Assembly (NCBI GenBank): GCA_965601925.1
Contig: OZ271854.1
Coordinates: 3,680,001-3,744,000, forward strand
Direction: 5' to 3'
Origin: Alkalispirochaeta sp.
GTDB taxonomy: Bacteria > Spirochaetota > Spirochaetia > DSM-27196 > Alkalispirochaetaceae
Length of the DNA stretch: 64,000 bases
Part shown: positions 19,104 to 36,774 of the stretch, in pieces
Layout of the letters: the number at the start of each line of letters is the position of its first letter
Numbering within the stretch: position 1 is the first letter of the stretch
The notes under the pieces: generated by a model
Databases searched by the model: none
What the model saw: the letters and a program-made list of their open reading frames with translations, nothing else
What the model was told of the DNA's origin: nothing
Made by a program: the position numbers and the translations under genes

Positions 19104-19168
19104 GCATCGCTCCTTTGACTGGCGACATCGACGCCTACACTTTTTGCAACATTTCGTCGATTTCGCTA

Positions 19169-19197: not shown

Positions 19198-19203
19198 TGA
19201 GTC

Positions 19204-19850: not shown

Positions 19851-19854
19851 AGTC

Positions 19855-20974: not shown

Positions 20975-21051
20975 TTTCGTAAATCACAATCGACCCTCAC
21001 AAAGCATACCTTAACCGCGTAAAAAAAATCCACAAAAAAAAGAATCATGTG

Positions 21052-21099
21052 TTGACTTGGGCCAAACGGCCCGTTAGTATTCATTACGTGCCGTTTGGC
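21052..21099 (+). promoter_or_regulatory. PR-like early promoter with overlapping inverted-repeat operator
   Basis: TTGACT-17bp-TAGTAT; perfect 10-bp IR GCCAAACGGC-N19-GCCGTTTGGC. Confidence 0.7.
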
Positions 21100-21117
21100 A
21101 TTGCAATGGAGGTCGCC

Positions 21118-21336
21118 TTGTCTACGGAAATTGTATTTGATCCAACCGCAGTATCCAAGACCAGCACCATAAGCGAGTCTGATATCTCGACAACTCTCCC
21201 ACGCGGCTGGTGGGAGCGCTGTCAGAAGCAGGGGTACAACGGAGTCAATCAGCACGTCGTCGGCGACTTGGTCGTTCTTCGCCCTGCGGTCGTTGATGTG
21301 GGCCAGAAGCGCCGACGCGGCCGGAAGCCGGAATAG
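21118..21336 (+). CDS. Small protein at the cro position (AbrB/MazE-like)
   Basis: GGAGG RBS with TTG start; TTLPRGWW...GDLVVLRP pattern. Confidence 0.5.
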   Translation: MSTEIVFDPTAVSKTSTISESDISTTLPRGWWERCQKQGYNGVNQHVVGDLVVLRPAVVDVGQKRRRGRKPE

Positions 21337-21347
21337 GCGAGGCGTAC

Positions 21348-21656
21348 ATGGACCTTGCGGCATTAGGCGCCTGTATCGAGGCAATCGACCAACGAACCCG
21401 CGAGATGGACGAGCGTCAACAGCGCATCGAGGACGCGGTACGCACGCCGTCCCTCACGATCAAAGACATCTGCACGGAGTACCTCCACCGGAGCGAAACA
21501 TGGCTCCGCACGCGCCCCTGGGCACTCCCGGAACCGGACATCAAAGGTCGCCCCAACGTCTGGTGGCGCACGACCTGCGACGAGTTCTACTCGGTGCCGA
21601 TCGAGACTCGGCGCCATGAGTATCTCCGAAACCACCGGACCCGGAGGGCCTCATGA
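21348..21656 (+). CDS. Excisionase/AlpA-like DNA-binding protein
   Basis: LTIKDICTEYLHRSETWL...LPEPD..GRPNVWW. Confidence 0.55.
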   Translation: MDLAALGACIEAIDQRTREMDERQQRIEDAVRTPSLTIKDICTEYLHRSETWLRTRPWALPEPDIKGRPNVWWRTTCDEFYSVPIETRRHEYLRNHRTRRAS

Positions 21657-21949
21657 GCCTTGCCGACAACCTCTCCGTACGGGTAGAGGCCGGGGCGCGT
21701 GCCTGGGCCGAGCAGGGCAACCCGATGCAACCACCCCCGAAGTCCCGCTACGACGAAGCGGCCGCCGAACTCCGTGAGGCACTCTCCGATGGTCGATGGC
21801 ACAGCCTTGAAGTCGCCAAGCGCATCGCCCGCAAACACCGACACTACCCCAATCCGCTCATGGACTACGCCGGCGTCGCGGTCTCGGAGAACGGAAAGCG
21901 CATCATCTGGGCGTTCGGCGCCAAAGAGATCGACGAGGAGCGAGCATGA
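21653..21949 (+). CDS. Phage hypothetical protein
   Basis: ATGA-coupled gene in the early operon. Confidence 0.65.
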   Translation: MSLADNLSVRVEAGARAWAEQGNPMQPPPKSRYDEAAAELREALSDGRWHSLEVAKRIARKHRHYPNPLMDYAGVAVSENGKRIIWAFGAKEIDEERA

Positions 21950-22251
21950 CCGAGCGCGAGAGGATCGCTATTGCGGAGAAGAAAATCCGCTTGCTTGAGG
22001 CCCGCGGCCACGAGTGTGAGGTATGCGGAAAGCAGATCAACGCATGTACGACCCAGCTCGCACACCGCGTCATCAAGTCCGGCGACAACCTCAAGAAGTA
22101 CGGTAAGGCCATCATCCACCACGACCTCAACCTCGCGCTCACCTGCAGCCTCTACTGTAACGGCAAGGTCATCGTGAACGGACTCCCCAAAGAGCACCTA
22201 CTCATCGAAATCAAAGAGGCCATCGAGGCCGAACAAGGAGGACGCGTATGA
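21946..22251 (+). CDS. HNH-like zinc-binding protein
   Basis: CEVC...QLAH...NLALTCSLYCN. Confidence 0.6.
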   Translation: MTERERIAIAEKKIRLLEARGHECEVCGKQINACTTQLAHRVIKSGDNLKKYGKAIIHHDLNLALTCSLYCNGKVIVNGLPKEHLLIEIKEAIEAEQGGRV

Positions 22252-22682
22252 ACCCAACACGCCGCCTCGCCGAAGCACGTGCCGAATACCATGAAGCCAT
22301 CCACCGGCGACTCGAGGGGGAACCGAACCCCGAACGCGAAGAAGCGCTCAAGGCGGAAATCGACCGTCTTGAGACAGCGCACAAAAGCGAGAAGTCGAAG
22401 GACGCCAAGGCGTTCGAGGCCGAGATGGCATTCCGCCGCCGCCGCGTCGAGCTCTTGGAGAACCTGAAGGCTCACCACACAACCGGCCGCCTCGACAAGA
22501 ACCAGTACATCCAAGCTCAGAAGTTCCTGCTCACACCGAAGCGCCTCGACACCCTGGAGAAGGCGTGGGAGATGATTAAGCGGCGCCTGAACGAGACGTT
22601 CGACGAGCTCCCGCCTGAGGCGCACCTCCATGCCGATGAGCCGACCCTCGCACCCGACGACTTTCCTATAGAGGCGTATTGA
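22248..22682 (+). CDS. Phage hypothetical protein
   Basis: AGGAGG RBS; coupled ORF. Confidence 0.65.
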   Translation: MNPTRRLAEARAEYHEAIHRRLEGEPNPEREEALKAEIDRLETAHKSEKSKDAKAFEAEMAFRRRRVELLENLKAHHTTGRLDKNQYIQAQKFLLTPKRLDTLEKAWEMIKRRLNETFDELPPEAHLHADEPTLAPDDFPIEAY

Positions 22683-22683
22683 G

Positions 22684-23067
22684 ATGGCCACCGACAAGAT
22701 GCCAACCACTGAAGAGATCAAATGGGCCAAGGACTGGGCGCGCGGCGGCGGATATCACGAAGGTCACGCGGTCCGAATCCTGCTCGACGCACTCGAGGCC
22801 ATCGATAGCGCCGGCATCTGCGGAGAGGTACTCGCGGAACGCGCTCGTCAGGACAAGAAGTGGGGCCAACAGAATCACCACCCCATGGAATGGCTCGCGA
22901 TCCTCGGTGAGGAGGTAGGGGAGGTCAACAAGGCCGCACTCGAGACCTACTGGAACTACCGCGGACGGATTGGCGACTACTCCGAATACCGCCGAGAACT
23001 GATCCAGACCGCCGCCGCGTGCTTCGCGATGATCGAATGCCTCGATCGGAACGAGGTAAAGCGATGA
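22684..23067 (+). CDS. MazG-like nucleotide pyrophosphohydrolase
   Basis: ERARQDKKWGQQNH, ILGEEVGEV, RELIQTAA. Confidence 0.75.
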   Translation: MATDKMPTTEEIKWAKDWARGGGYHEGHAVRILLDALEAIDSAGICGEVLAERARQDKKWGQQNHHPMEWLAILGEEVGEVNKAALETYWNYRGRIGDYSEYRRELIQTAAACFAMIECLDRNEVKR

Positions 23068-23387
23068 CCGACACCCAACTCCTACTCCTACCCATCCAGC
23101 CGGTACCGAAGCGCCCCACGATCGCCGAGAGCTTCCAGGAGTTCCACACGCTGAACCCGCATGTCTACGACATCCTCCGCCGCGAAGCGCTCCTCGTTAA
23201 GGGTGCTGGGAAGCGAGTCAGCATGAAAGGGTTGTTCGAGCACTTGAGGTGGGAATACATGGTCCACACCAACCACCAGGACTACAAACTCAACAACAAC
23301 TACACGGCCCACTACGCCCGGATGCTCATGGAGCGCGAGCCAGAGCTTGCCGGATTCTTCGAGACGCGGAGGCGACACGATGGATAA
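23064..23387 (+). CDS. Phage hypothetical protein
   Basis: Coupled ORF (FHTLNPHVY...LRWE...KLNNNY..HYAR). Confidence 0.7.
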   Translation: MTDTQLLLLPIQPVPKRPTIAESFQEFHTLNPHVYDILRREALLVKGAGKRVSMKGLFEHLRWEYMVHTNHQDYKLNNNYTAHYARMLMEREPELAGFFETRRRHDG

Positions 23388-23700
23388 GAAACCCTTCTTC
23401 TCCGAGCCCGGCGCGGATCTACAGTTCCTGAAACTGATGGCCGCCGCCGAGAGACTATCGAAGCTACACGTCCAAACCGAGCTCCTCGAACGGATCGCCG
23501 GCGCACTCGACAACGCGATCATGCGCGCAGAGTCGGATGACCCCACGGTCCGCCAAACCGCCCAGGGGGCCGAGCTTGTCGCGAACGTACTCGACGCAAT
23601 CCATTCCCTGCTCACGGCCCTCTCCGCGTACTCGGATCACTTCGACCGTCACCAAGACGTAGCGCGCATCATGCGAGACATAGGGTGGGGCGATGGGTGA
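23380..23700 (+). CDS. Phage hypothetical protein
   Basis: GGAGG RBS; coupled ORF. Confidence 0.6.
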   Translation: MDKKPFFSEPGADLQFLKLMAAAERLSKLHVQTELLERIAGALDNAIMRAESDDPTVRQTAQGAELVANVLDAIHSLLTALSAYSDHFDRHQDVARIMRDIGWGDG

Positions 23701-25441
23701 TCTAACGCACGTCAGCCTCTTCTCAGGAATCGGCGGCTTCGACCTGGCGGCGGACCGCGCCGGCTTTGAGACGGTCCTCCAGGTCGAACGCGATCCCGAC
23801 ATGCTCAAGGTTCTCGCGTACTACTGGCCGAACGTTCCTCGTATCACCGATATCAGAGAGGTAACCCGTGACTCAGTCGACCGACCAGTTACCGTTGTTT
23901 CCGGCGGATTCCCCTGCCAACCATTCAGTACCGCCGGGAAGCGAAGCGGCACGAGCGATGACCGTTACCTCTGGCCGGAGATGCGTCGCTGCATTGAAGA
24001 ACTCCGGCCCACTTGGGTTCTTGCTGAAAACGTTGCTGGTCTCCTCTCGATGGGCGAGTTGGGCGGGCTCCCTGACCTGGGAGACGAAGGCCGTAGCTCG
24101 TACGGTGACGGAGACGTATACCGCCTATCTGGACGTGGATTACTCGACGTTATCCTGGAAGAGATCGAGTCGCTCGACTACACCGTCACACCGGTGGTTA
24201 TTCCAGCTGCGGCTGTCGGTGCCCACCATCGACGAAACCGAGTCTTCATTGTTGCCTACTCCGAGCGCAACAGAGTACGGAACCAATCAGAGTCCCTCGC
24301 CCGGGGCCTCGGTACGCCCGAGCCTCTCGACGATGGCGCGTCACGATCTACTCCCGACCCCGACCTCCGGGGACGCGAACCGGGGGGAGTACCAGTACGA
24401 CCAACACGACAAGACGAAGCCGAGGCCGTCATTGCTGGGGCGTGCACGGCTGTTGCCGACGATTCGAGCTTCGGACGGCGAACGGGGAGGCCGGGGCGAT
24501 CTCATACAGGCGGTCAGGGGCAACCCGAACCGTCATTACCGATTGCTACCAACGCCGAGGGTGACCACGAACGGAGGGAGTGGCCGTCACCGGGGCGACA
24601 ATCGCGGCCGTCTCGAGGACGAGGTTCACAACCCGGAGCGCCTGCTACCGACGCCGACGGCTCGCGACTGGAGGACGGGGGATCGTCCAGAGAACCGGCG
24701 AGCCCGCATGAAGCAAGGCGGGGAGTGGCACTCGCCGAACCTGAACGATGTCGCCGCACCGGGCGGACGCCTCAACCCGGAATGGGTCGAGTGGCTCATG
24801 GGCTTCCCGATCGGCTGGACGGAACCGATATCCCTCCCACCGCCCACGGAGTCCCCGATCAACGAGCCCGCCTCCGAGGATTAGGAAACGCCGTACACCC
24901 CGACCAAGCCTATCCGTTCTTCGAAGCGATCGCCGCGATCGAGCGCGGATTAGAAACGGCTGCGGCATTAGAAAGGAGCTACACCTATGAGCGAGATAAA
25001 ACGACTCGGCCTCCGAATGATCCTATGGGTTGCTCAAGCAATCCTCCGCAACCAGCTCGACGACGAAGAGCGCGAAGAGCTTGGGTACATCGCGACGAGC
25101 CTGCACGTCGTGAAGGAAGAGCCGGAGTTGTGGGCGCTCGAACCGGAGCCGCCTACGGTCGAGGTAAAGGGGTCTTTCGCGCGTTTGCGATCGCACCCGA
25201 CACCCAAACCCGAAGACAAGGAGGGCGAAGGATGACCGTCTTGCAGATGCGTTTCGTTCAACAAGCCGACGGCATGATGATTCACGTCGAAAACTTGGCC
25301 CGAGAAGACGCTAAGCGCGCGGAGGTTGAGTACGCAAACAGATTCGAGGACATGGTCAAGATCACCGCCAGAGAAATGCACGGCGGCGTTGATCAGGAGT
25401 CGATCCCACAGCGAGACCCCGAGGAGCATGACGATGCTTGA
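23693..25441 (+). CDS. C5-cytosine DNA methyltransferase, large (alpha) chain; ORF reads through into a downstream small gene
   Basis: SLFSGIGG (I), GGFPCQPFS (IV), ENV (VI), HRRNRVF (VIII), RLRGLGNAV (X); no motif IX. Confidence 0.85.
   Translation: MGDLTHVSLFSGIGGFDLAADRAGFETVLQVERDPDMLKVLAYYWPNVPRITDIREVTRDSVDRPVTVVSGGFPCQPFSTAGKRSGTSDDRYLWPEMRRCIEELRPTWVLAENVAGLLSMGELGGLPDLGDEGRSSYGDGDVYRLSGRGLLDVILEEIESLDYTVTPVVIPAAAVGAHHRRNRVFIVAYSERNRVRNQSESLARGLGTPEPLDDGASRSTPDPDLRGREPGGVPVRPTRQDEAEAVIAGACTAVADDSSFGRRTGRPGRSHTGGQGQPEPSLPIATNAEGDHERREWPSPGRQSRPSRGRGSQPGAPATDADGSRLEDGGSSREPASPHEARRGVALAEPERCRRTGRTPQPGMGRVAHGLPDRLDGTDIPPTAHGVPDQRARLRGLGNAVHPDQAYPFFEAIAAIERGLETAAALERSYTYERDKTTRPPNDPMGCSSNPPQPARRRRARRAWVHRDEPARREGRAGVVGARTGAAYGRGKGVFRAFAIAPDTQTRRQGGRRMTVLQMRFVQQADGMMIHVENLAREDAKRAEVEYANRFEDMVKITAREMHGGVDQESIPQRDPEEHDDA
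23868..24884 (+). CDS. Nested +1-frame MTase small (beta) chain with motif IX and five LLPT repeats
   Basis: GAGG RBS with GTG start; C-terminal RLNPEWVEWLMGFPIGWT. Confidence 0.75.
   Translation: MTQSTDQLPLFPADSPANHSVPPGSEAARAMTVTSGRRCVAALKNSGPLGFLLKTLLVSSRWASWAGSLTWETKAVARTVTETYTAYLDVDYSTLSWKRSSRSTTPSHRWLFQLRLSVPTIDETESSLLPTPSATEYGTNQSPSPGASVRPSLSTMARHDLLPTPTSGDANRGEYQYDQHDKTKPRPSLLGRARLLPTIRASDGERGGRGDLIQAVRGNPNRHYRLLPTPRVTTNGGSGRHRGDNRGRLEDEVHNPERLLPTPTARDWRTGDRPENRRARMKQGGEWHSPNLNDVAAPGGRLNPEWVEWLMGFPIGWTEPISLPPPTESPINEPASED
24987..25235 (+). CDS. Phage hypothetical protein
   Basis: AAAGGAG RBS. Confidence 0.6.
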   Translation: MSEIKRLGLRMILWVAQAILRNQLDDEEREELGYIATSLHVVKEEPELWALEPEPPTVEVKGSFARLRSHPTPKPEDKEGEG

Positions 25442-25820
25442 GAAACTCCCATACCCCCTTAGTGAGGGCGTAACCGCCACGCGCGAAGGGCTGGTCGTAG
25501 ATGACGAGCATACGCACTGGTTCGTCGAGCTCTTCTGGTTACTTCCGGACTACGCAACCTTCGGGGCTCCGCTCTACGAGTGGCAGCTCATGGCAGAGCG
25601 TCTACGATGTCCGCTCGACGCTCCTGGCGTGGTTCTTATCGACAACGGCGCGGATCCGCCGCAATGGCATCTCCTTATCGCCAACGAGCGCTTCTTTTCC
25701 TCACATGAGGTCGGCCGCCTCTCGCGTCCCGCTTGCCTGCTGTTCAACGGCCCCGACGGCTTTCGCGTCATCCACTGGTGTATCACGGAGTTAGGAGGTG
25801 GGGATGCCAGTCAAACGTAA
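25428..25820 (+). CDS. Phage hypothetical protein
   Basis: GAGGAG RBS. Confidence 0.55.
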   Translation: MTMLEKLPYPLSEGVTATREGLVVDDEHTHWFVELFWLLPDYATFGAPLYEWQLMAERLRCPLDAPGVVLIDNGADPPQWHLLIANERFFSSHEVGRLSRPACLLFNGPDGFRVIHWCITELGGGDASQT

Positions 25821-26022
25821 CGACCGTCCATGGTTCGAGATCAAATCATCGGTCTCGAACCCATCGGTCCCCGGCGGATTCTGCCGGGCCGAGGTCAAGA
25901 TTAACGTCGGACTGCTGCCCGAGGACGTCTACCAACTCGTGGAACTGCTTCATCGGACAACCACCGAGTTCTCCGAACGTATCGCAAAGCGCTCGATCGA
26001 GAGTAAGGAGGCCGACTCATGA
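25804..26022 (+). CDS. Phage hypothetical protein
   Basis: AGGAGGT RBS. Confidence 0.55.
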   Translation: MPVKRNDRPWFEIKSSVSNPSVPGGFCRAEVKINVGLLPEDVYQLVELLHRTTTEFSERIAKRSIESKEADS

Positions 26023-26285
26023 CCCCCGCCACCACCATCCAGTCCGGTGCGATCGTTCACGCCCGCACCGGCCCGCGCACGTGTCCATTCTGCGGCAACA
26101 ACCAAACGAGCGGCTTCACGATCGAGCCATCCGAACACCGCCTCACCGCTGAGTACGTCATGTACGCCTACCAGGTCGCCCATTCCTGCGGCGCTCGCGG
26201 TCCGATAGCAGGCAGTCCCCGAGAGGCTCGCCGTCTCTGGGACGCACACACCACCAACCACGGAGGAGAGCATGGAACGAGTTAA
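26019..26285 (+). CDS. Lar-family restriction-alleviation-like protein
   Basis: CPFCG...SCGARGP....EARRLW; AAGGAGG RBS. Confidence 0.6.
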   Translation: MTPATTIQSGAIVHARTGPRTCPFCGNNQTSGFTIEPSEHRLTAEYVMYAYQVAHSCGARGPIAGSPREARRLWDAHTTNHGGEHGTS

Positions 26286-26520
26286 CGCATACATGTCACT
26301 AAACGGACGGAGATACGACACGGTAACTGATGCGCTCGCCGCTGATCGCTCTCACATAGCCGATGAGTTGACGGAAAACCTACGGAAGGTGTTTGGCTCA
26401 CAGGAGACCATCGACGTTCACGATATCGTCCGGGAGCGCGAGGAAGTCGCGCGCCTTATCGCGGAAGCGAGCGAAGCGTTTGCCGAGCTCAGGGATCAAG
26501 CGGTGGCGCTCTGTGGCTGA
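26272..26520 (+). CDS. Phage hypothetical protein
   Basis: GGAGGAG RBS. Confidence 0.55.
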   Translation: MERVNAYMSLNGRRYDTVTDALAADRSHIADELTENLRKVFGSQETIDVHDIVREREEVARLIAEASEAFAELRDQAVALCG

Positions 26521-26878
26521 CCAACGACAGAAACGGCGCGGCCCGAATCTCCCGACGATGGACGACATCGAACGCCGGATTCTCGAAGAGTACGCACACG
26601 CCAAGGGGTTCCGATCCCTCGGCGCCTTCGCGCTCTGGGCAATGACCCAAGCAATGCAACGCTCAAAAGTCGGCGATCTCCACAACGAGCTCGAAGCCCA
26701 CCGACGAGCGGAGAACGCCCAGAAGCCGCCCGCCGGTACGCAGGGTTCCAAGGACCACAAGACGGCGTCGAAGGCCATGAGAGGGCTACGCATTAATGCG
26801 CGGGCATACTGCGGGCACCTTCGAGGTCGTTGTGAAGAGCGACCGAACGATTCACGGCTTTTCACGGTTTCTCATTAA
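26513..26878 (+). CDS. Phage hypothetical protein
   Basis: Coupled GTG start. Confidence 0.45.
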   Translation: MADQRQKRRGPNLPTMDDIERRILEEYAHAKGFRSLGAFALWAMTQAMQRSKVGDLHNELEAHRRAENAQKPPAGTQGSKDHKTASKAMRGLRINARAYCGHLRGRCEERPNDSRLFTVSH

Positions 26879-27070
26879 GGAATCACACCCACGCCTCGCC
26901 AACGGGAGGCACGCATCCCACTACTACTACCGGATCCCTCGGGATCACGTAGAGCGGGCGCGACAGGCCGGGGCGCGGGTTGTCGGTGACGGAGCGAATG
27001 AGATCGGCACCGCCGACGCAGCCGGAACCGGGGGCAGATCCCGGACACCGACCGACGAGAGGAGGCGAGT

Positions 27071-27319
27071 ATGAAACTCGACGCGGCAAACGCCCAAACC
27101 ATCCTACGGAGCGCCGTCGACTGGCGCCGGCGCCAACACATCGGCTCCGCCCGCCAATCGGCGGACCAGAAACGCACCGAGGCCGAGCTCGGCAACCTAC
27201 TCTGGATCATCCGACAACTCGGCGTCGACGTCCCCACCCACGAGCAGATCAAGCCCTTGCTCATAACCCGCGAGGGGGGGGTAATCGACCTCCCTCAACC
27301 GGCCCCATGTCCATCATGA
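27071..27319 (+). CDS. Phage hypothetical protein
   Basis: GAGGAGG RBS. Confidence 0.55.
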   Translation: MKLDAANAQTILRSAVDWRRRQHIGSARQSADQKRTEAELGNLLWIIRQLGVDVPTHEQIKPLLITREGGVIDLPQPAPCPS

Positions 27320-27475
27320 AGCAACGCCGACCCCGGGCGGCAGTATCCCGGGAGATCACCGCGGCGGACGCCGGACAGGAGGCAGCGTAGGGCTACAGAC
27401 ATAGCGCTTGAAGGCGCGCACATAAGTTCGTGACCGCCGGGGATACCACCCGGCGGGGTTTTGTAAGGAGAGGCT

Positions 27476-27739
27476 ATGAAAGAGTTCGATTTCGAATGTG
27501 GCGCAACGGTCCGAGACAAGATCACTGGGTTTTCAGGCGTCATCCGCGCCCGCACTCAGTACCTGACGGGGTGTAACAAGTACGCCGTCCAGGCAACCGA
27601 CATTCGCGAAGGCAAACCCGAGGAGTGGGTGTGGTTCGACGAGGGTGAGCTCGAGGTGTTCGGCAAGCCCGTGACGCTCGAGGTGAGCCGCGAGCGACGG
27701 GGCGGGCCGGTGGAAGCAGGGAAGCTGCCGCCGAGGTAG
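27476..27739 (+). CDS. Conserved phage hypothetical protein (SH3-like)
   Basis: GATVRDKITGFSGVI...YLTGC..Y...WFDE; AAGGAG RBS. Confidence 0.7.
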   Translation: MKEFDFECGATVRDKITGFSGVIRARTQYLTGCNKYAVQATDIREGKPEEWVWFDEGELEVFGKPVTLEVSRERRGGPVEAGKLPPR

Positions 27740-27747
27740 CGGCACGC

Positions 27748-27886
27748 GGCATCGTAGCTCAGTTGGTAGAGCGGCGTTGTATCCGGCGCGGCGAGGTGCT
27801 GCGGACTCACACAGTCCGTGAAAAGTGCATCCAACCGAGTTCACTGGCGAGTGTTCCGGGCGCGGGTTCGAGTCCCGCCGATGCCA
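27748..27886 (+). ncRNA. 139-nt tRNA-like RNA with canonical acceptor, D and T arms and an oversized central domain
   Basis: GGCATCG/CGATGCC+A; TA-GCTC-AGTTGGTA-GAGC; GCGGG-TTCGAGT-CCCGC; about 89 nt between the D and T arms. Confidence 0.75.
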
Positions 27887-27925
27887 TCGCGTGTAACGCG
27901 ACGTCCGCCGGGGCGTGAGAATACG

Positions 27926-27998
27926 GGTGAGTGGTGTAGGTAACGAGTAGGTTTTGGCATTTTCCCTACAGATGGCCGTTCGATTCGGTCAGCCACCA
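27926..27998 (+). ncRNA. Second, degenerate tRNA-like element
   Basis: GGCCG-TTCGATT-CGGTC T arm, GTAGG/CCTAC stem with a 13-nt loop, GGTG/CACCA ends. Confidence 0.45.
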
Positions 27999-28051
27999 GA
28001 AGTCAAGAAGCCGCCCACAGGGCGAAATCACGACTGAGAGGGGAGTCGTCT

Positions 28052-29071
28052 ATGGCGGGTACACACACGGTCCGTATGGACCACGACCAAGACATCATCT
28101 TCAAGAGCGTTGGGCTCTACAAAATGTTCATGGCGGCCGGGGCCGCTGGGCAGGAGGCGAACCTCCTCTACGACCATCTCATCTTCACCGCGCGTCTCCA
28201 AACGACCAACCAGGTTCGGGCGACCGACGAGTACCTCCGAAACGGGCTCGGGTGGGGGCTCGCGAAGGTGAAGCGGGCGAAGGCGTTTCTCTCCTCCCGC
28301 GGCCTCATCGAGTACGTGAAGGATCGCCGCGACGACGGCCGAATCCTCAAGAGCTTCATTCGCATTACCGCCGGTCTCCGCCTCCCAGAAACCGCCGTAC
28401 AACCCACAGGGTCAGAAATTGACCCTGTTGCATCCGGCGACGGGATGGAGATCGATCCACCCGCATCAACAGGGTCAAAAACTGACCCTGTTGCACCCAC
28501 AGGGTCAGATATCAACCGGGTTGCTGACCATACGTATGGTCCCAGTAGACAAATGCTTAAAGAGAGAAAGGAAATGCTTGAAGAGAGAAAGAGAAATGGC
28601 CCTGACGGGCATCTCTCCGAGCCTCCGGTCGATGAAACGGCGAACAAGACCGCCGACTCGAATCAGATACAACCCACAGGGTCAGAAATTGACCCTGTTG
28701 TACCCGATACTCGCCGCGACCTTGAGCGTGAGGTCCGGGAGTGGTACGAGAGCCGCCAACCGGGCAAGCGGTTCGAGGATTACCCTGTCGAAATACACCA
28801 CGTCAAACTCATCGTTGACCGCGCCCTCAAGTACGAGCCTGAAAACGCCCGGGCCTGGCTGGATGAGTTCATGGCGACCCACGAGCGTCTGAAGAACAAC
28901 CCCCGCCACCTGCTGCACGACCACCCACTGCTCCCGAGCATGGCCAACTCAGGGCGACTGGTCTTGCGGATTCTCGACGCCATGACTCTCGCGCTGCCCG
29001 CGCCCGACCATACCGGGATTGAGCCTGACATCGCCGATCTCCTCGACCGGACCTACGGCCCCGCCCAATGA
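28052..29071 (+). CDS. Phage replication initiator (lambda O-like)
   Basis: wHTH-like N-terminus (LRNGLGWGLAKVKRAKAFL..GLI); internal iterons; directly upstream of the helicase. Confidence 0.75.
   Translation: MAGTHTVRMDHDQDIIFKSVGLYKMFMAAGAAGQEANLLYDHLIFTARLQTTNQVRATDEYLRNGLGWGLAKVKRAKAFLSSRGLIEYVKDRRDDGRILKSFIRITAGLRLPETAVQPTGSEIDPVASGDGMEIDPPASTGSKTDPVAPTGSDINRVADHTYGPSRQMLKERKEMLEERKRNGPDGHLSEPPVDETANKTADSNQIQPTGSEIDPVVPDTRRDLEREVREWYESRQPGKRFEDYPVEIHHVKLIVDRALKYEPENARAWLDEFMATHERLKNNPRHLLHDHPLLPSMANSGRLVLRILDAMTLALPAPDHTGIEPDIADLLDRTYGPAQ
28400..28700 (+). repeat. Iteron array / phage replication origin
   Basis: Four copies of ACAGGGTCA-N5-TGACCCTGT (one degenerate) plus a purine-rich repeated tract. 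Confidence 0.75.
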
Positions 29072-30375
29072 GCGTGCAGCACGAACGGGCATTTGTCGGC
29101 CGCCTCCTGACGTCCGCGAAAACGATGCTCGAAACCTCCCTGGACGATCGGCACTTCGCGGATCCGCTGTGCCGCCTCGTGTTCCAGACCGCCGGCCAGT
29201 GTCTCCAAGACGGCATCGAACCGACGATCGTCACCGTCTGCGACCCGTCCCGGCGGGTTCTCAACAATCGTGAGGGCGAGGTAGCGGAGCTCACCACCGA
29301 GGCACATGTCGGCCGTATCGACTGGATCGAGGCGCAACTCGTCACCGCGTACGAATCGCGAGTACTCCAGCAGCTTGGTCGCACACTCCTTGATCTCGCC
29401 GACGACCCCGCAGCCGCGATCGCCGCAGTGGACGAGAGCATGGAAGCTCTCGCGACGGCCGACACGACGAATCGCGTATGGAGCGCGCGAGAACTGGTCC
29501 GGCCCACCATCGAGACGATCGAAGAGCGCTACCACGCAAAGGGCGAGCTTCCGGGCGTTCCGAGCGGTATTCGCGAGTTGGACGCGATGTCGAACGGTTT
29601 CCAGGACGGCATGTTCTACGTCATCGCCGCACGCCCGTCGGTCGGAAAGTCGGCGCTCCTTAAGCACCTCGCCACGTTCGTTTCGACCAACGGCTCCAAC
29701 TCACCGTATGTCCCCGCCGGGGTGTTCTCGGCGGAGTCCAGCCGACACGAGTTCATGGTGCGCGCATTCGCCGATTTCGCGAGCATCGACAGCATGCGGC
29801 TCTCCAACGGAATGATCGGGCCGAGCGACTTCGGTCGGCTCACGCAGGCCGGAGAGAAGCTGTACGAATCCAAGCTCTACATCTACGACGAGCCGAATAT
29901 GGGCATCGCTCGCCTCACATCGCTCGCCCGCCTTATGAAGCGCAAGCACGGCATTCGCATCCTGTTCGTGGACTACGTGCAGATCATCGACGCGGCGGCG
30001 AACGACCGAACGCGCACCGAGCAGGTGTCGCTGGTAAGCCGCGCGCTCAAGAAGCTGGCGCGATCGCTGGAGATACCGGTGGTCGCGGTGGCACAGGCGG
30101 GCCGCGAGTCGGAGAAGGAACACCGGTGGCCACGACAGAGCGACGTACAACACGCGTCGCAGATCGAGCAGGATGTCGACGGGCTGATGTTCATACACCC
30201 GGAGAACGAGCGGGACGGGCGGCTGAAGCAGCTGTGGCTCGTGGTGTTGAAGATGCGCGATGGAAAGACCGGGAGCATACCGATTCACTTTGAGAAACGA
30301 TTCCTGCGGTTTACCGATCGTGCGCCGGAACGGTGGGATGACAACGTCCGGGGCCAAGGAGTGAACGCGTCATGA
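29068..30375 (+). CDS. DnaB-like replicative helicase
   Basis: IAARPSVGKS, FVDYVQI, VSRALKKLAR, QIEQDVD, KMRDG. Confidence 0.93.
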   Translation: MSVQHERAFVGRLLTSAKTMLETSLDDRHFADPLCRLVFQTAGQCLQDGIEPTIVTVCDPSRRVLNNREGEVAELTTEAHVGRIDWIEAQLVTAYESRVLQQLGRTLLDLADDPAAAIAAVDESMEALATADTTNRVWSARELVRPTIETIEERYHAKGELPGVPSGIRELDAMSNGFQDGMFYVIAARPSVGKSALLKHLATFVSTNGSNSPYVPAGVFSAESSRHEFMVRAFADFASIDSMRLSNGMIGPSDFGRLTQAGEKLYESKLYIYDEPNMGIARLTSLARLMKRKHGIRILFVDYVQIIDAAANDRTRTEQVSLVSRALKKLARSLEIPVVAVAQAGRESEKEHRWPRQSDVQHASQIEQDVDGLMFIHPENERDGRLKQLWLVVLKMRDGKTGSIPIHFEKRFLRFTDRAPERWDDNVRGQGVNAS

Positions 30376-31205
30376 CCACGCGTATCCGGCGGCCCGTCCT
30401 TCGTTACCACGGTGGCAAGTGGCGACTCGCACCGTGGATCATCTCGCACTTCCCGCCACACCGCGTGTATGTCGAGCCGTATGGCGGGGCGGCGAGTGTG
30501 TTGATGCGGAAGCCGCGGGCGAGCACCGAAGTCTACAACGACCTCGACGGCGAGATTGTGAACGCGCTCCGTGTCATCCGCGAGTACGGACACAGGCTCG
30601 CGGAGCTCTTGCGGCACACGCCATACGCGCGCGATGAGTTCGCGCAGAGCTACGAGCCGAGCGAGGACCCAGTCGAGCAGGCACGACGGACGATTGTGCG
30701 GTCGTTCTTCGGGCACGGGAGCGCGGGGACCGCCGGACACTCAACGGGGTTCCGAGCGAAGGCGCACGCAACCCACCCTGGCGGCGCGAAGGAGTGGGCG
30801 AACTATTGGGCGCAGATCGAGGAGTTCTCGGACAGGCTGGCGGGCGTGACCATCGAGAGCCGGCCCGCGATCGACGTGATAGCGGAGTACGACCAGGACG
30901 GCGCGCTGTTCTACGTAGATCCGCCGTATATGCCAGGGACTCGGCGTCGGGGCAATCAGTACTGCCGGAAAGGCGAGTACCGGCATGAGATGACCGAGGA
31001 AGATCACGCAGAGTTACTCGGCGCCCTCGGGAATGTCCGGGGCTCTGTGGTGATAAGCGGATATCCGTCGGAGCTCTACAACGAACGGCTTGGAGACTGG
31101 CGCCGCATCACACGGACGGCGTACGCGGATCGTGCAGCCAGGAGGTCGGAGGTTTTGTGGTTATCACCAAACATCAAGCCGGTGCAGGGGGAGTTGTTCG
31201 GATGA
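30372..31205 (+). CDS. N6-adenine DNA methyltransferase (Dam/D12 class)
   Basis: RYHGGKW, YVEPYGG, YNDLD, YVDPPY. Confidence 0.92.
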   Translation: MTTRIRRPVLRYHGGKWRLAPWIISHFPPHRVYVEPYGGAASVLMRKPRASTEVYNDLDGEIVNALRVIREYGHRLAELLRHTPYARDEFAQSYEPSEDPVEQARRTIVRSFFGHGSAGTAGHSTGFRAKAHATHPGGAKEWANYWAQIEEFSDRLAGVTIESRPAIDVIAEYDQDGALFYVDPPYMPGTRRRGNQYCRKGEYRHEMTEEDHAELLGALGNVRGSVVISGYPSELYNERLGDWRRITRTAYADRAARRSEVLWLSPNIKPVQGELFG

Positions 31206-31338
31206 GACGGAAAAGGTCGCGGGTCCTTCTGGAGATTTTGACATTTATGACGGGTGATGTTCCGCACCGTCGCTCCCTCCACCACATCGCTCTTTTTTCT
31301 GAGGTGGTTTAGTTGATCGTGACAGGCAAGGAGCTGAC

Positions 31339-31632
31339 GTGACGTGTCCGAAGTGCGGAGGCAAGACCAAAGTCCTTGAGCGACGGAAGATCACGCCCTC
31401 GCTGTTTCTACGCCGCCGTCGCTGCGTGCGGTGTGACTATCGATTCAATACATACGAGGCGCGGGAGAAAGACGAACATATACCACTACCGGTAGTGGTA
31501 CTCGATGGAAAGACCGGTTTAAATGCCGGTTCGGCGCCTGTAGCCTTGAGTCAGTGGCAAGCGGAAGCAGGGCGAAATACAACCGACCGTCTCGAATCCG
31601 TCGCGGATACGACAGCGAATGGTACAACGTAA
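31339..31632 (+). CDS. NrdR-like zinc-ribbon protein
   Basis: CPKCG..T.V.....RRRRCVRCDYRFNTYE. Confidence 0.7.
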   Translation: MTCPKCGGKTKVLERRKITPSLFLRRRRCVRCDYRFNTYEAREKDEHIPLPVVVLDGKTGLNAGSAPVALSQWQAEAGRNTTDRLESVADTTANGTT

Positions 31633-31898
31633 TCCGTCCTGCGGTCCTGCGAGCGCACGGGATCCCCGAGGATCAATGGCGGCTCTACGACGTAGACCAT
31701 CGTCCCGCCTACAACCCCGACGTGGAACCCGATCATCGCAAGTACACGCTTGTCCCGATGCTGCGTGGCGAACACAGCCGCAAGACCGCGACGGTTGACG
31801 GCGGGTTCGGGAACCGAACGAACGACCGGCCACATATCAAGCCTGTCCGGCCGGTGAGCAGAACGGTGCAGCAATCGCCGAACGTGAGGATCACATGA
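31554..31898 (+). CDS. Packaging-associated HNH endonuclease (HK97 gp74-like)
   Basis: RRGYDSEW...DVDH...EHSRKTA..DGGFGN, upstream of terS. Confidence 0.7.
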   Translation: MASGSRAKYNRPSRIRRGYDSEWYNVIRPAVLRAHGIPEDQWRLYDVDHRPAYNPDVEPDHRKYTLVPMLRGEHSRKTATVDGGFGNRTNDRPHIKPVRPVSRTVQQSPNVRIT

Positions 31899-32161
31899 CG
31901 GACACGCTCAACGCCCAAGGATCGCGCATGACGCTAAGCATCGGCGACACCACCGACTTTGATGTCTCTCATGTTCGCGTGAACAAGCTCGATCCGTCCG
32001 ATGTAATCGTACTGCGGACCGCGGATCGACTCAGCCTCTCGAACATCGACCGGATACGCGAGCTCGTCGAACCACTCTTTCCCTCGAACAAGGTCTTGGT
32101 GCTCGAAGCGGGTGCGGATATCGAACTCTACCAGGGGGAGGGGGGCGTCAAATCGCTATGA
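31895..32161 (+). CDS. Phage hypothetical protein
   Basis: Coupled ORF with GAGGA RBS. Confidence 0.5.
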   Translation: MTDTLNAQGSRMTLSIGDTTDFDVSHVRVNKLDPSDVIVLRTADRLSLSNIDRIRELVEPLFPSNKVLVLEAGADIELYQGEGGVKSL

Positions 32162-32225
32162 GCTCCAGCCCTTTAACCGCGCGTGGTACCTTCGCACACT
32201 TTTTTGTCAAAATGAAAACTTTGAC
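32134..32225 (+). other. Probable cos packaging-site region
   Basis: GGGGGAGGGGGGCGTCAAATC...CCGCGCG...TTTTTTGTCAAAAT between the HNH gene and terS, as in many cos phages. Confidence 0.45.
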
Positions 32226-32243
32226 TTTCGGGGGCAATCCGTA

Positions 32244-32708
32244 GTGGCCGGCCGCCCTCGCACGCCCACAGCGCTGAAGATTCTCAAGGGCACGCATCGG
32301 CCCGATCGGGCCGTCAACGAGCCGAATCCCGACGTCCCCCACGAGATTGTCGCGCCAGCGCTACTCCGCACCAAGCGCGCAAAAGAGCTGTATGTACGGA
32401 TCGCCACGGAGTTGGCGCCGTCGGGTTTGTTCACCGTTGCCGACGAGCTTTCTCTTGTCGCACTGGTTCGCGTCGAGATCGTGCTTGATCGCCTGGAGCG
32501 GAAGCTTAAACTCGACCTTATGGGCGGCGCGATGGGCGGGCCTGTCGCCGACCCGCGTCTCCCGGCGTACCGCGACCTCTTGAAGATCGCCGCGAATCTG
32601 CGGCGAGGCTTTGGTATGGATCCGGCAAGCCGTTCTCGGATTGATTTGCCCGCCGCCAGCGAGGACGAGGGTGACGGCATGGGTGACATTTTGGCGGGGA
32701 ACGGCTGA
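32244..32708 (+). CDS. Terminase small subunit (P27 family)
   Basis: GRPRTPTALKILKGT.RPDR; FGMDPASRSRI. Confidence 0.88.
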   Translation: MAGRPRTPTALKILKGTHRPDRAVNEPNPDVPHEIVAPALLRTKRAKELYVRIATELAPSGLFTVADELSLVALVRVEIVLDRLERKLKLDLMGGAMGGPVADPRLPAYRDLLKIAANLRRGFGMDPASRSRIDLPAASEDEGDGMGDILAGNG

Positions 32709-34465
32709 TGTGGCGGCGACTGCTTTGCGTGGCTGTCGGGGCGCTCGCGTTGGTTGAGCCGGCGTTTACCTACCACCAGTACGCCGCGGACGTCCGGAGC
32801 GGCGAACAGGTAGCGTGTAAATGGGTTCGGCTCGCCGTCGACCGTTGGTACTCCGATCTCGATCGCCAGGGTTCAGACGCCCTTCCTTGGGTGTTCGATG
32901 AAGCCCGAGCCAATCGCTATATCTCCTTCACTCGCCGATTGGAGCATACACAGGCGTTCACCGGCACCTTCGAGCCGCAGCCGTGGCAGCAATTTGCCAT
33001 GGCGAACATATTCGGATGGGTCCACCCAGACACAGGATATCGCCGGTTCCGAAAGACGTATCGCGAGGTAGCACGGAAGCAGGGTAAGACGTTCGGAGCC
33101 GCGGCAGAGGGGAACGCGGCGCTTCACCTGGATGGCGAGCGCGGCGCCGAGTTCTTCTGTTTGGCTCGAGACCGCGACCAGGCAATGAAGGCGTACACTT
33201 ATGTACGCGAGCAGAACCAGAACCACCCACTCCTCGCGCGACGCCTGAAGTTCTACAAGGGGCAGGCTCCGAAGATGATGGGGCGGGGCAACACCGGAAG
33301 CGGCGAGCTCGATGCATCCGTTCTCATCCGGCCTGTTACGAAGGATCCGAGGAAACAGGATTCATGGAATCCCCATATCATCCTCGTCGACGAGTATCAC
33401 GCGCACGACACCAACGACCTTATCAACGCCTACGAGTCAGGCACGGGGTCCCGCCCGCAGCCATTGACGCTCATTATCACGACCGCGGGAACGAACTATG
33501 ACGGGCCGGCGTACCAGGAGGAGCGCGCGACGCTGACGCGTATGCTCACCGGCAAGATCCCAATGTTGGAGCGCTTCTGGGGGACCATTTACACGCTGGA
33601 CGACGGCGACGACTACACCGATGAGCGCGTGTGGATAAAGGCCAATCCGAATCTCGGTGTTTCGGTCTACGTCGACTATCTTCGCGATCGCGTGGCTGAG
33701 GCCGCGGTCAGTCCCCGGAAAGCGACCGATGTGCTGACCAAGAACTTTAACGTGTGGCAATCCTCGGAAACGCGGTGGATGACGCCCGAGGTATGGCAGC
33801 GCAACGGGCATGCTGTCGATGAAGAGAGCCTGAAAGGCGCCGGTGCAGCGGGCGGCTTGGACCTGAGTTTGACCACCGATATCACCGCGCTCTGTTGGGC
33901 GTTTCCACTCGTCGATGGCCGCCATCCGATGATTTGGCGGTTCTTCATTCCGACGGATCGCCTTGTAGAGCGGATTCGTCGTGATCGCGTGCCGTACGAC
34001 GCGTGGATCAAACAGGGATGGATCATCCCGTGCGCTGGCGAGACGATCGACTACAGCCTCGTCACGCAGACGATTCTGGACGACGCCGCGACCTTTGGCG
34101 CGTCGCGGCTCGGGTACGATCCGTGGCATGCGGGAGAGGTCGAAGAGGCGGTTGTAGATACTCTCGAACTGGTGAAGTACCGGCAGAGATACGAGGACAT
34201 GGGGCAGCCGTCGTTGATGTTCGAGCATCTTGCAATAAACGGCGCCATTGCTCACGGAGACAACCCGGTCATGGCGTGGATGATGCGTAACACCGAGATC
34301 AAGGAGGATCGCCAAGGGAACATCATGCCCATGAAGCCACGGCGCGACGGGTATGGGAAGCGCATCGACGGGGTTCCGGCTGGCATCATAGCACTCGATC
34401 TCGTTCGAGGCGGAATGCCCGACACCTCCAGTGTCTACGACACAAAGGAGGTGCTGCTCCTATGA
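32708..34465 (+). CDS. Terminase large subunit
   Basis: PWQQF, VARKQGKT (Walker A), LVDEYH, ITTAG, KANPNLG, GLDLS, RIDG. Confidence 0.95.
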   Translation: MWRRLLCVAVGALALVEPAFTYHQYAADVRSGEQVACKWVRLAVDRWYSDLDRQGSDALPWVFDEARANRYISFTRRLEHTQAFTGTFEPQPWQQFAMANIFGWVHPDTGYRRFRKTYREVARKQGKTFGAAAEGNAALHLDGERGAEFFCLARDRDQAMKAYTYVREQNQNHPLLARRLKFYKGQAPKMMGRGNTGSGELDASVLIRPVTKDPRKQDSWNPHIILVDEYHAHDTNDLINAYESGTGSRPQPLTLIITTAGTNYDGPAYQEERATLTRMLTGKIPMLERFWGTIYTLDDGDDYTDERVWIKANPNLGVSVYVDYLRDRVAEAAVSPRKATDVLTKNFNVWQSSETRWMTPEVWQRNGHAVDEESLKGAGAAGGLDLSLTTDITALCWAFPLVDGRHPMIWRFFIPTDRLVERIRRDRVPYDAWIKQGWIIPCAGETIDYSLVTQTILDDAATFGASRLGYDPWHAGEVEEAVVDTLELVKYRQRYEDMGQPSLMFEHLAINGAIAHGDNPVMAWMMRNTEIKEDRQGNIMPMKPRRDGYGKRIDGVPAGIIALDLVRGGMPDTSSVYDTKEVLLL

Positions 34466-36072
34466 GCTGGCTCAAGGACATCCGACAAGCGGTGCGTGGG
34501 TTCGCCGCCCTCGCCGAGTCGCGCAGTAGCCTCGAAAACCCCAAGATCCCAATCTCCTCGAAGGAGATCATGGCCTACTTCGAAGGAATGCCGACGTCGA
34601 CCGGCTTGACCGTCAACGAGGACAAGGTCATGGGCGTCGCGGCGATACTCTCGGTCATTCGAGTGCTCGCCGAAGGTATCGCGGCCCTCCCGTTGGAAAC
34701 CTATCGCCGCACCGAGAACGGCGGGCGGGAACGAGCGACGGACCACCCCGCGTATCGCATGCTCAAGCTGAGACCAAACCCGTTCATGAGCGCGATGCGG
34801 TACTACGAGCTTGCTATGAAGCATGTCGTTCTCCGTGGACGGCATTACGCAGAGATACAATTCGATTCTTCCGGTTATCCCGTGGCGTTTTGGCCGCTGA
34901 GCCCGACCGACACCGAGCCGGTCTATACGGAGCGAGAGAGCCTCGTCTATGTGACGACAATCGGTAACGAGCGGGTCGGGCTTCCGGACTATCGTGTACT
35001 GCATATCTCTGCACTCGGCGACGGGATCAAGGGCGGCGGCCTTCTCGACTACAGCCGGGAGACGGCGGGCTACGCGGCGGCACTTGATCAATATCAAGGA
35101 AAGTTCTTTGCGAACGGCGCGCACACAAATGGTTTTCTGAAACATCCGGCAACCCTCACAGACTCCGCTCGCGAACGTCTGAAGAGTGCGTGGAAAATGG
35201 CTCACGGCGGCTTGTCCAACGCTCATCGCACGGCAGTACTCGAGGAGGGTGTCGAGTGGGTGAAGACCGCCGTATCTCCAGAGGAAGCACAGGCGATCGA
35301 AGCACGCAAGCTCACCCGGAGCGAGATAGCTGGCCTCTATCGGGTATCCGCTCATTTCATCAACGATCTTGAGCACGCGACGTTTTCGAACGTCGAAGAG
35401 CTCAACATATCCCACGTCGTACACGCGATACGGCCGTGGGCGGTACGCTTCGAGCAGGAGATGGACTACAAACTCTTCGCGGGAGAGCCGCAGATGTACG
35501 TCAAGTTCAATCTCGACGCTTTGCTCCGAGGAGACAGGAAGAGCCGATCGGAGGCGTTAGAGATTGAGCGGCGGAACGGTGTGCTCACCGCGAACGAGTG
35601 GCGAGAACTCGAAAACCGCAATCCCGTCGCTTCACCGTACGGCGACAGTTTCATGCTCCAGGTAAACAACGCACTCGTCGGAGCAGATGGACGGATAACA
35701 CCGCTATCTACGAGCAATCTGCCCCGCGATCGAAGTGTCGCAAGGAAGATTGCCATGGCGTTTCTCCGGGACTCCCTTCGTCGAGTGGCGTCGCGGGAGA
35801 AACGCGCAATCGAGAAACATCTGAAATCGAGTGAGGCCCAAGCAATGGGGGAGGAGGCGGCCGTTCGTTCGTACTGCATGAGCGCGGACTGGATCGAGGA
35901 AGTCCTGTATCCCGCCATCCGGGCCGCGAACAGTGCAGGGTTATCTCTTGACGCCCGGGGTTACCCGGACCGGTCCATCGAACAGTATCGCAACACAAAG
36001 CTCGACCGCTGGGAGGAACGGCGGATCAACGCAGAGCTGGCCACGGTAGGAGGATTCAATGCCGAGACATGA
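34462..36072 (+). CDS. HK97-family portal protein
   Basis: RPNPFMS, FFANGA, VLEEG, ATFSNVE, TANEWR. Confidence 0.93.
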   Translation: MSWLKDIRQAVRGFAALAESRSSLENPKIPISSKEIMAYFEGMPTSTGLTVNEDKVMGVAAILSVIRVLAEGIAALPLETYRRTENGGRERATDHPAYRMLKLRPNPFMSAMRYYELAMKHVVLRGRHYAEIQFDSSGYPVAFWPLSPTDTEPVYTERESLVYVTTIGNERVGLPDYRVLHISALGDGIKGGGLLDYSRETAGYAAALDQYQGKFFANGAHTNGFLKHPATLTDSARERLKSAWKMAHGGLSNAHRTAVLEEGVEWVKTAVSPEEAQAIEARKLTRSEIAGLYRVSAHFINDLEHATFSNVEELNISHVVHAIRPWAVRFEQEMDYKLFAGEPQMYVKFNLDALLRGDRKSRSEALEIERRNGVLTANEWRELENRNPVASPYGDSFMLQVNNALVGADGRITPLSTSNLPRDRSVARKIAMAFLRDSLRRVASREKRAIEKHLKSSEAQAMGEEAAVRSYCMSADWIEEVLYPAIRAANSAGLSLDARGYPDRSIEQYRNTKLDRWEERRINAELATVGGFNAET

Positions 36073-36766: not shown

Positions 36767-36774
36767 GAGGCACA

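Follow-up and report, generated by a model that had tools for sequence, protein, structure and literature searches.

A non-decoding tRNA-shaped RNA in the early region of an Alkalispirochaeta prophage

What might a temperate phage gain from an RNA that has the body of a tRNA and no means of decoding? The question is raised by a 64,000-nt stretch of an Alkalispirochaeta sp. genome (contig OZ271854.1; hereafter the window, to which all plain coordinates refer), in which positions 27748..27886 of the plus strand hold a gene for a tRNA-shaped RNA without a usable anticodon, 139 nt long to its discriminator and with its CCA not encoded. The original prediction for this RNA (the window RNA), drawn from the sequence, described a prophage transcript that keeps the acceptor and elbow of a tRNA without decoding and that carries a structured domain in place of the anticodon and variable region. 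Among its possible roles were a decoy for anticodon nucleases and a scaffold for a small RNA.

The tRNA body and its enlarged middle

The tRNA body of the window RNA is complete. Its acceptor stem (5' strand 27748..27754, pairing with 27879-27885; GGCATCG/CGATGCC) is Watson-Crick paired at 7 of 7 positions and leads to a discriminator A at 27886. The D arm (27757..27772) combines a 4-bp stem, GCTC/GAGC, with A14, G15, G18G19 and A21, the G15 being able to pair with C48 (27861), and the T arm (27862..27878) consists of a GCGGG/CCCGC stem and the canonical T loop TTCGAGT. Sequence, fold and Rfam agree on the elements originally described (a 7-bp acceptor with discriminator A, a D arm with GG and a T arm), and the spacing between the D and T stems, put at about 89 nt, measures 89 nt.

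Rfam and ARAGORN had been named as checks on this reading. Over the window RNA the former found the tRNA family alone (RF00005, 46.5 bits, E 5.9e-08, with an 83-nt local gap), in keeping with the view that the RNA is neither a tmRNA nor a group I/II intron, and the latter made no call under default settings. With introns allowed, ARAGORN read the RNA as Ala(GGC) with a 66-nt intron, a call that we rejected on a stricter test in which no single deletion yielded a canonical class I anticodon arm (class I being the geometry covered). Measured against a decoding tRNA, the window RNA has the 7-bp acceptor, the D arm, the T arm and the elbow nucleotides, and is without the 5-bp anticodon stem and 7-nt loop (U33, purine 37). 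A search for long tRNA shells, with code that recovered 30 normal tRNAs in the host genome as a positive control, found the window RNA alone in these 5.05 Mb and nothing in any of four block-shuffled strands. The window RNA is a genuine non-decoding tRNA shape and not a product of chance; the match to RF00005 and the missing anticodon bear out this part of the original prediction.

The middle is predicted to form, in order on the plus strand, an anticodon-like hairpin, an extra hairpin and a variable-arm-like hairpin. The first (H1, 27774..27789) has 6 bp with pair probabilities of 0.93-0.98, and a 4-nt loop that would widen to 6 nt if the last pair opened; it offers no anticodon loop. The claim that no canonical anticodon arm can be drawn is correct in that a 7-nt loop is missing, with the qualification that a 6-bp hairpin occupies the anticodon-arm position. 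The second (H2, 27796..27828) has a firm inner helix, a 5-nt loop, an A-rich 3' bulge and an uncertain outer stem; of the extendable hairpin first described here the inner helix stands, whereas the outer GGTGC/GCATC extension reaches a pair probability of only 0.57. The third (H3, 27835..27859) takes the variable-arm position in the predicted fold.

This arrangement is no more stable than expected. Shuffled inserts folded at least as well in 200 of 500 cases inside the shell and in 247 of 500 alone, an 8-bp helix was present in 145 of 200, and the internal repeat of the insert was matched by 60 of 500 shuffles. With stability at chance level, the 89-nt insert is not supported as a special or conserved functional domain, and the structured domain of the original prediction is not borne out, since the insert folds no better than shuffles and the middles of related RNAs (described below) are dissimilar to it.

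Searches at the sequence level gave a similar picture. Exact searches of IMG/VR with the 5' and 3' ends of the window RNA returned 0 matches each, BLASTN against GenBank phages and plasmids gave nothing beyond short D-arm or T-arm matches, and a DNA search of 101 relatives gave nothing longer than 31 nt beyond the RNA's own genome; the best insert match among these relatives was dismissed, as it sits in an ABC-transporter-like gene. The long-shell pattern matched the window only among 99 genomes of the order and had three matches among 401 genomes of the class, namely the window, one Y-like unit and one stretch with an ordinary-tRNA reading. No diverged homologue of the insert was found in IMG/VR, GenBank phages, plasmids or relatives.

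The early region of this and related prophages

The window RNA lies in a prophage (15546..52514, plus strand) with integrase, terminase, portal, capsid and amidase genes, flanked by a 16-nt att core that occurs at the 3' end of a tRNA-Thr and again at 52499-52514. A terminator-like hairpin with a GATACC loop (27434..27456, plus) stands 290 nt upstream of the RNA and is followed by an 87-aa ORF (27476..27739, plus) of the common phage family PHROG 16275, whose stop codon is 8 nt from the start of the RNA. The product of this upstream ORF is a predicted five-stranded beta barrel; its fold had no PDB match at E<=0.001 and hypothetical clusters only in the atlas, and a search of 401 genomes of the phylum did not find the protein outside the host genome. 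A GC-rich hairpin (27726..27744, plus) overlaps the stop codon and ends 3 nt before the window RNA. On the other side, a 3' trailer (27887..27927, plus) with two short hairpins, as read from the sequence, runs into a second, decayed tRNA-like stretch (27925..27998, plus) that has a T-loop hairpin, a broken acceptor and a terminal CCA, and on which neither Rfam nor ARAGORN made a call. A replication initiator (a weak O-like match, E 7e-4) and a DnaB-like helicase follow (28052..30375, plus), the initiator 165 nt from the 3' end of the window RNA, so that upstream ORF, RNA, initiator and DnaB all lie on the plus strand. No promoter consensus was found in 26800-28300. Two further repeats were observed in the prophage: four imperfect 39-nt repeats in the replication gene (28398-28706), where an iteron origin is likely, and 129-nt tandem repeats (46356-47258) in a gene for a 1660-aa beta-propeller tail protein.

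Beyond the right att site (52578-58548) are genes for a GNAT acetyltransferase, a HepT-like RNase, an RloC-like PDC-S06 protein and a transposase. The HepT-like RNase and the RloC-like AAA_13 gene (53772..56893, plus; PADLOC PDC-S06, 976 bits, with a weak PrrC match) are the nuclease genes that the original prediction had placed nearby; both are there, though outside the prophage, within 5 kb of its right att site and in an island of 45% GC (measured over 52000-57000). The host genome also has an RNase P RNA and a CCA-adding enzyme, and only 1 of its 47 scored tRNA genes encodes CCA, which makes the proposed RNase P and CCA processing of the window RNA plausible. Flagellin and DUF5312 are encoded as well, and point to a spirochaete.

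Related prophages were sought with one early protein as bait (21946-22251), which matched 5 of 99 genomes of the order, its own included; the other four are here called G007, G011, G028 and G060. We applied to the sense strand of the five prophage stretches (2.5-16.5 kb) a descriptor of seven acceptor pairs plus a T arm, designed after the window, G007 and G011 had been viewed, so that G028 and G060 alone are blind tests. The descriptor had exactly one match in each of the five stretches. Its background was 47 sites outside ARAGORN calls in the host genome (0.0047 per kb) and one site (L268) in 120 kb of control phage loci, and the joint chance of the two blind matches was about 0.0015 (0.063 x 0.023). 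In all five RNAs the acceptor pairs at 7 of 7 positions, a T-loop hairpin is present, the anticodon loop is absent and the location is the early region, and a replication-initiator homologue lies downstream in four of the five prophages. A hairpin stands 2-5 nt upstream of the RNA in all five (noted by eye, with no statistics), and the GATACC hairpin of the window recurs directly 5' of the RNA in G007 and G011. ARAGORN called none of the five, and Rfam at E<=5 did not find the RNAs of G011 and G060.

Beyond these common points the five RNAs, which come from kin prophages and are not independent, are dissimilar. They measure 139 nt (window), 80-81 nt (G007), 70 nt (G011), 100 nt (G028) and 95 nt (G060), have the discriminators A, A, T, A and C in the same order, and differ from one another in acceptor sequence, D arm and middle; G3:U70 occurs in G007 only. 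The G007 RNA (L123:3218-3298 on G007:C29, minus strand) resembles the tRNA-like domain of a tmRNA without its message (Rfam tmRNA, 51.9 bits against a cut-off of 47): it keeps G3:U70 and the tmRNA identity features, has no tag frame, and lies just 5' of the replication gene in a prophage with three orthologues in the same order. It could be alanylated and bind SmpB; a pattern for such mini-tmRNAs had 0 matches in IMG/VR. The G011 RNA (L301:1824-1893) is an acceptor-helix-T structure of 70 nt that follows the GATACC hairpin and precedes the replication gene by about 85 nt. In G028 the RNA (L304:13702-13801, minus; Rfam 52.7 bits) is a shell with an enlarged anticodon arm, followed on its 3' side by an ORF that we take to be SSB-like and then by a weak replication-gene homologue (24%, E 5e-4). 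The G060 RNA (L305:466-560, minus) is 465 nt from the end of its contig, and no replication gene was seen in that remainder. The folds of the G007 and G011 RNAs beat their shuffles, being equalled by 1 of 300 and 0 of 300 respectively, and the middle of the G028 RNA, although the most similar to the window insert among the related RNAs, was equalled by 17 of 300 shuffles and is not significantly similar. What the five prophages share is an acceptor-T stack, its place in the early region and, by eye, a hairpin just upstream. The comparison suggests that it is the shape, rather than the inserted piece, that seems to matter.

Close copies of the window RNA were present in four metagenomic runs, three from marine samples of one study (X5-X7) and one from a sample of another study (X8). 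The contigs with the RNA are 151 nt long at a depth of 2-5, which makes linkage to one phage impossible and means that single differences may be errors. The X6 contig covers 27755-27886 with 1 difference in 132 positions, X7 covers 27761-27886 with 3 differences and X5 covers 27804-27927 with 1; A27811G, in the H2 loop, is the sole variant listed that is common to the three marine contigs. X8 is identical over 27862-27927 (T arm, acceptor strand and trailer) and unrelated upstream of the T stem. X6 and X7 diverge right after the discriminator into one common new trailer, which replaces the trailer 27887..27927 present in X5 and X8, and the latter two stop or diverge at 27927, where the decayed tRNA-like stretch begins (27925). 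These breakpoints suggest a module whose edges are the edges of the tRNA and whose middle can be exchanged. A replication-gene piece in X6, which may come from another phage than the RNA contig, shows 48 differences over 277 positions. No RNA dataset was among the runs listed with matches, a result without bearing on expression. The X6 run also yielded a 335-nt contig with a D arm and a T arm 76 nt apart, which is either another long shell or a Y-RNA junction.

Known tRNA look-alikes and a wider class of long shells

The closest outline among known RNAs is that of T5 RNA1 (AY543070 30501-30644), a 144-nt species annotated as a 'tRNA-like stable RNA with unknown functions', which shares with the window RNA an acceptor, a D arm, an enlarged non-decoding middle and an extra hairpin before the T arm. 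It is weakly matched by the Rfam tRNA model (24 bits) and differs from the window RNA in belonging to a lytic phage, in lying within a tRNA cluster and in having a D arm that by eye is Leu-like; the two inserts are not similar (243 of 300 shuffles score as well). T4 RNA C (species 1; RNA D is species 2) is, like the window RNA, 139 nt long and combines a T arm with a large insert. The cited accounts present it as an expressed stable RNA without an assigned function (PMC9697503, PMC3014915). It departs from the window RNA in having no canonical D arm in its predicted fold, in its place in a tRNA cluster and in its late expression, and has no Rfam match at E<=1 and no insert similarity (290 of 300 shuffles). 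The window RNA shows the outline of these RNAs, a tRNA with an enlarged non-decoding middle, which has no formal family, and with T5 RNA1 sharing it this outline is not unprecedented.

Two further groups bear on processing. Plant mitochondrial t-elements are, in the cited account, non-decoding tRNA shapes beside genes, with a conserved T-arm motif, that direct cuts by RNase P and RNase Z and so form mRNA ends (PMC1920247). The window RNA has the acceptor-like stem and T-arm motif of such elements inside a transcription unit; t-elements are organellar and, in that account, have mapped cleavage (PMC1920247). The CI RNA of P4 and the C4 RNAs of P1/P7 are RNase P substrates of temperate phages and, in the cited description, have no T loop (PMC5499578); the window RNA has one, and no antisense target was found for it.

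Other classes fit less well. YrlA Y RNAs (RF02553) have D and T arms and no anticodon, are phage-borne, and in tandem arrays mimic a tRNA with a long insert (PMC4201824). They are recognised, according to the cited account, by a T-acceptor-D order, a GNCGAAN0-1G motif and a neighbouring Ro60 gene, here taken as one within 4 kb (PMC4201824), none of which applies to the window RNA: it has tRNA order with no T arm upstream, contains only GGCGAG (twice), shows no significant similarity to Y-array inserts, and has no Ro60 gene in its host genome, where TROVE (PF05731) was the family searched. Rfam YrlA had 6 matches in the host genome at E<=10, the window RNA not among them. A tmRNA origin is not indicated either, as the window RNA has C3-G70 and a 4-bp D stem, not G3:U70 and a stemless D loop, ARAGORN made no tmRNA call in the window, and the host tmRNA is sited elsewhere. 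The theta ribozyme has, as the cited account describes it, an HDV-like fold that begins at a tRNA 3' end (PMC10879173); the general Rfam families gave no ribozyme at E<=10 in 26000-30000. In the titles and abstract openings searched, from which subscription journals and the older T4/T5 literature were mostly outside scope, we found no description of anticodon-less tRNA shapes before prophage replication genes.

Patterns for long shells show how widely such outlines occur. Acceptor-specific gap patterns gave 32 genome matches and 15 and 19 viral matches, most of which were dismissed as tandem tRNAs, Y-RNA arrays or chance; a Y-RNA array mimics a long-insert tRNA wherever the D arm of a unit is followed by the T arm of its neighbour. 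A general pattern matched at least 122 stretches in IMG/VR, and among the matches listed 61 of 124 qualified as shells, with an acceptor paired at 6 or 7 of its 7 positions, a T stem and no inner T loop. Pooling loci, there were 71 distinct shells among the matches listed, the window RNA included; one artefact from tandem tRNAs and some Y-array junctions are part of this set. The search patterns did not require the 15-48 pair, which 69 of the 71 retain. None of the 70 other shells listed has an insert like that of the window, the best similarity being equalled by 13 of 200 shuffles.

Among these shells several observations stand in their own right. One deletion at 27/28-29/30 turns 21 of the 70 other shells listed into canonical tRNAs (shuffles at most 2% each): L129, L134, L136, L142, L157, L160, L164, L187, L190, L196, L203, L205, L210 (two), L211, L217, L221 and L127:1036-1150, and also L063, L085 and L088. 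Most of their inserts carry a GTTACTT or ACAGCAA motif, motifs that occur also in Y-RNA-like units beside Ro60-like genes (L001, L063, L291); the literature search found no description of tRNA shells spliceable at this position. Other phage shells have anticodon-less, multi-hairpin middles (L140, L145, L168, L172, L173, L174, L181, L182, L216, L219, L229, L043 and L065), and several of these stand alone before an ORF. The shell of L043 has the acceptor sequence of the window RNA and not its insert, and was rejected as a relative. That of L145 shares the outline of the window RNA and follows a homologue of the upstream ORF (38% over 52 aa); kinship through the insert was rejected here too, as the similarity is equalled by 161 of 300 shuffles. 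Xanthomonas phage 10KY502B (L001:1016-1576) has a YrlA-like array before a TROVE gene, in a record that annotates a partial tRNA-Thr only. An anticodon arm survives in some units (Thr, Glu), which can therefore be read as circularly permuted tRNAs, a reading that we set aside in favour of YrlA-like RNAs beside a TROVE gene.

Across 40 IMG/VR loci of the upstream-ORF family, a long shell follows the gene in one (L268, the contig of L145), a permuted tmRNA in another (L261), ordinary tRNAs lie nearby in two, and 36 have none of these, so that the RNA and the upstream gene are only weakly associated. The L261 RNA (L261:1760-1999, 109.7 bits) is a phage permuted (two-piece) tmRNA about 10 nt after the stop of the upstream-ORF homologue.

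A processing signal weighed against other roles

The window RNA is real and probably functional as a shape; it may act in the manner of a t-element or of a stable RNA such as T5 RNA1, and it belongs to no curated family. RNase P, the nucleases that mature tRNA 3' ends and the CCA enzyme all recognise the acceptor-T stack of their substrates. We favour, at a probability of roughly one half, a prophage 't-element': a signal by shape only for RNase P and 3' trimming, which would cut the early transcript and release a stable RNA. Fold, place and recurrence in related prophages are observed, and from them we infer the following course. Once the early operon is transcribed, host RNase P would recognise the stack of acceptor stem and T arm and cut at 27748, and 3' tRNA-maturation nucleases would cut after 27886. 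The upstream early genes would thereby be separated from the replication genes, the initiator-helicase message would gain a defined 5' end, and an RNA of about 142 nt would be released that is stable, carries a CCA tail and is probably uncharged. Its middle would be free to vary because the processing enzymes do not read it.

A cis cutting signal is the simplest reading because the five RNAs do not preserve a common charging identity and decoding is impossible. It is consistent with the single acceptor-T shape without an anticodon loop in the early region of 5 of 5 related prophages, with the replication-initiator homologue that follows in 4 of 5, with the divergence of X6 and X7 at the discriminator and the swap of sequence upstream of the T stem in X8, with the 15-48 pair kept in 69 of the 71 listed shells, and with the presence of the host RNase P RNA and CCA enzyme; mitochondrial t-elements, P4 CI and P1/P7 C4 are precedents. 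Against it, RNase P requires an acceptor and a T arm only, yet the window RNA has a full D arm; the near-identical copies keep the insert, so the product itself may matter, or the copies may merely be recent; and T5 RNA1 and T4 RNA C lie in tRNA clusters and not before replication genes. The comparative support is also bounded, with two RNAs (G011 and G060) below Rfam detection, five prophages that are kin and two blind tests only, and it also fits a decoy that acts in trans by its shape.

Such a decoy, a released RNA that titrates host proteins binding tRNA bodies (acceptor-end or anticodon nucleases, tRNA-damage sensors or, for the G007 RNA, SmpB), is in our estimate unlikely. RloC reportedly cleaves tRNA at the wobble base, and HepT-type RNases trim tRNA 3' ends; genes like both are found less than 5 kb from the right att site, and a decoy without an anticodon loop would compete for anticodon nucleases and not be cleavable by them. 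The elbow of the window RNA is intact, the G007 RNA has tmRNA identity features without a tag frame, long shells occur in many phages (the 61 of 124 among the IMG/VR matches listed), and T4 RNA C, as the cited account has it, is expressed and stable (PMC9697503). A decoy nonetheless fits the same data less well than a cis signal, because the nuclease genes are not phage-linked, belonging to a low-GC island beyond the prophage, and because the five RNAs differ in acceptor identity and discriminator, unlike what a decoy for one specific enzyme would show; each prophage, moreover, has one copy in the stretches examined. We think it distinctly improbable that the window RNA is a neutral relic, the remains of a captured tRNA whose anticodon arm was lost to an insertion and which is decaying like its neighbour at 27925-27998. 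The decayed neighbour, the shuffle-level stability of the insert and the want of a diverged insert homologue in IMG/VR, GenBank phages, plasmids and relatives would all suit a relic. Flawless acceptor, D and T arms would not, nor would the dissimilar tRNA shapes in the early region of five related prophages, the folding of the G011 and G007 RNAs far beyond their shuffles, or the contrast in X6 between 1 difference in 132 positions of the RNA and 48 in 277 of the replication-gene piece, two pieces that may come from different phages.

Readings that give the middle or the flanks a role of their own fare worse. C4 and CI RNAs are sited in early operons and act by antisense pairing, and the window RNA, in a comparable place before replication genes and likely to meet the same processing enzyme, could after their fashion regulate the early operon by antisense pairing, with the tRNA shape as a scaffold; the conserved upstream hairpin in three prophages would agree. 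In exact Watson-Crick searches, however, the longest matches were of 11-12 nt in the prophage (equalled by 52 and 15 of 100 shuffles) and 10 nt near the RNA (50 of 200), the Rfam match is to tRNA only, and the middles are not conserved among the five RNAs. With no complementary target above chance, the small-RNA scaffold of the original prediction finds no backing, and this reading is very unlikely. A co-transcriptional antiterminator or pause site made of the tRNA shape and its flanking hairpins, for which HK022 put RNA is a model, would account for the hairpin 2-5 nt upstream of all five RNAs (by eye) and the terminator-like hairpin 290 nt upstream in the window; we regard it as very doubtful indeed, a canonical T loop and acceptor end being unnecessary for such a role. 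An interrupted tRNA, in which a maturable tRNA would contain a small intron or a Ro60-binding Y-RNA module, is largely refuted and highly improbable. The 21 spliceable shells among the 70 others listed offer an example, and GGCGAG, twice in the insert, is one base off the YrlA motif GNCGAA; no single deletion gives the window RNA a class I anticodon arm, however, neither a TROVE gene nor a YrlA match above cut-off occurs in the host genome, which is 96.7% complete, and both the closest Y-array insert similarity (equalled by 15 of 200 shuffles) and the internal repeat (60 of 500) are within reach of shuffling.

The dissimilar shapes in the same region narrow what selection keeps to an acceptor stem and a T arm, and make the choice between cis signal and trans decoy directly testable by swapping the five RNAs. 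They also show that standard annotation misses oversized, non-decoding tRNA look-alikes. More tentatively, the early operon of temperate phages may contain a 'tRNA-shape slot' that any captured tRNA-like RNA could fill, be it an expanded tRNA, a message-less tmRNA or an acceptor-T mini-helix, and that would tie maturation of the replication message to host tRNA processing, with the released RNA perhaps soaking up tRNA-targeting defence proteins. If this is true, commitment to replication would be tied to the tRNA-processing capacity of the host, and phage tRNA look-alikes such as T5 RNA1 and T4 RNA C would gain a first function. A role in cis would be the bacterial-phage counterpart of mitochondrial tRNA punctuation, and a role in trans would be an RNA-based counter-defence.
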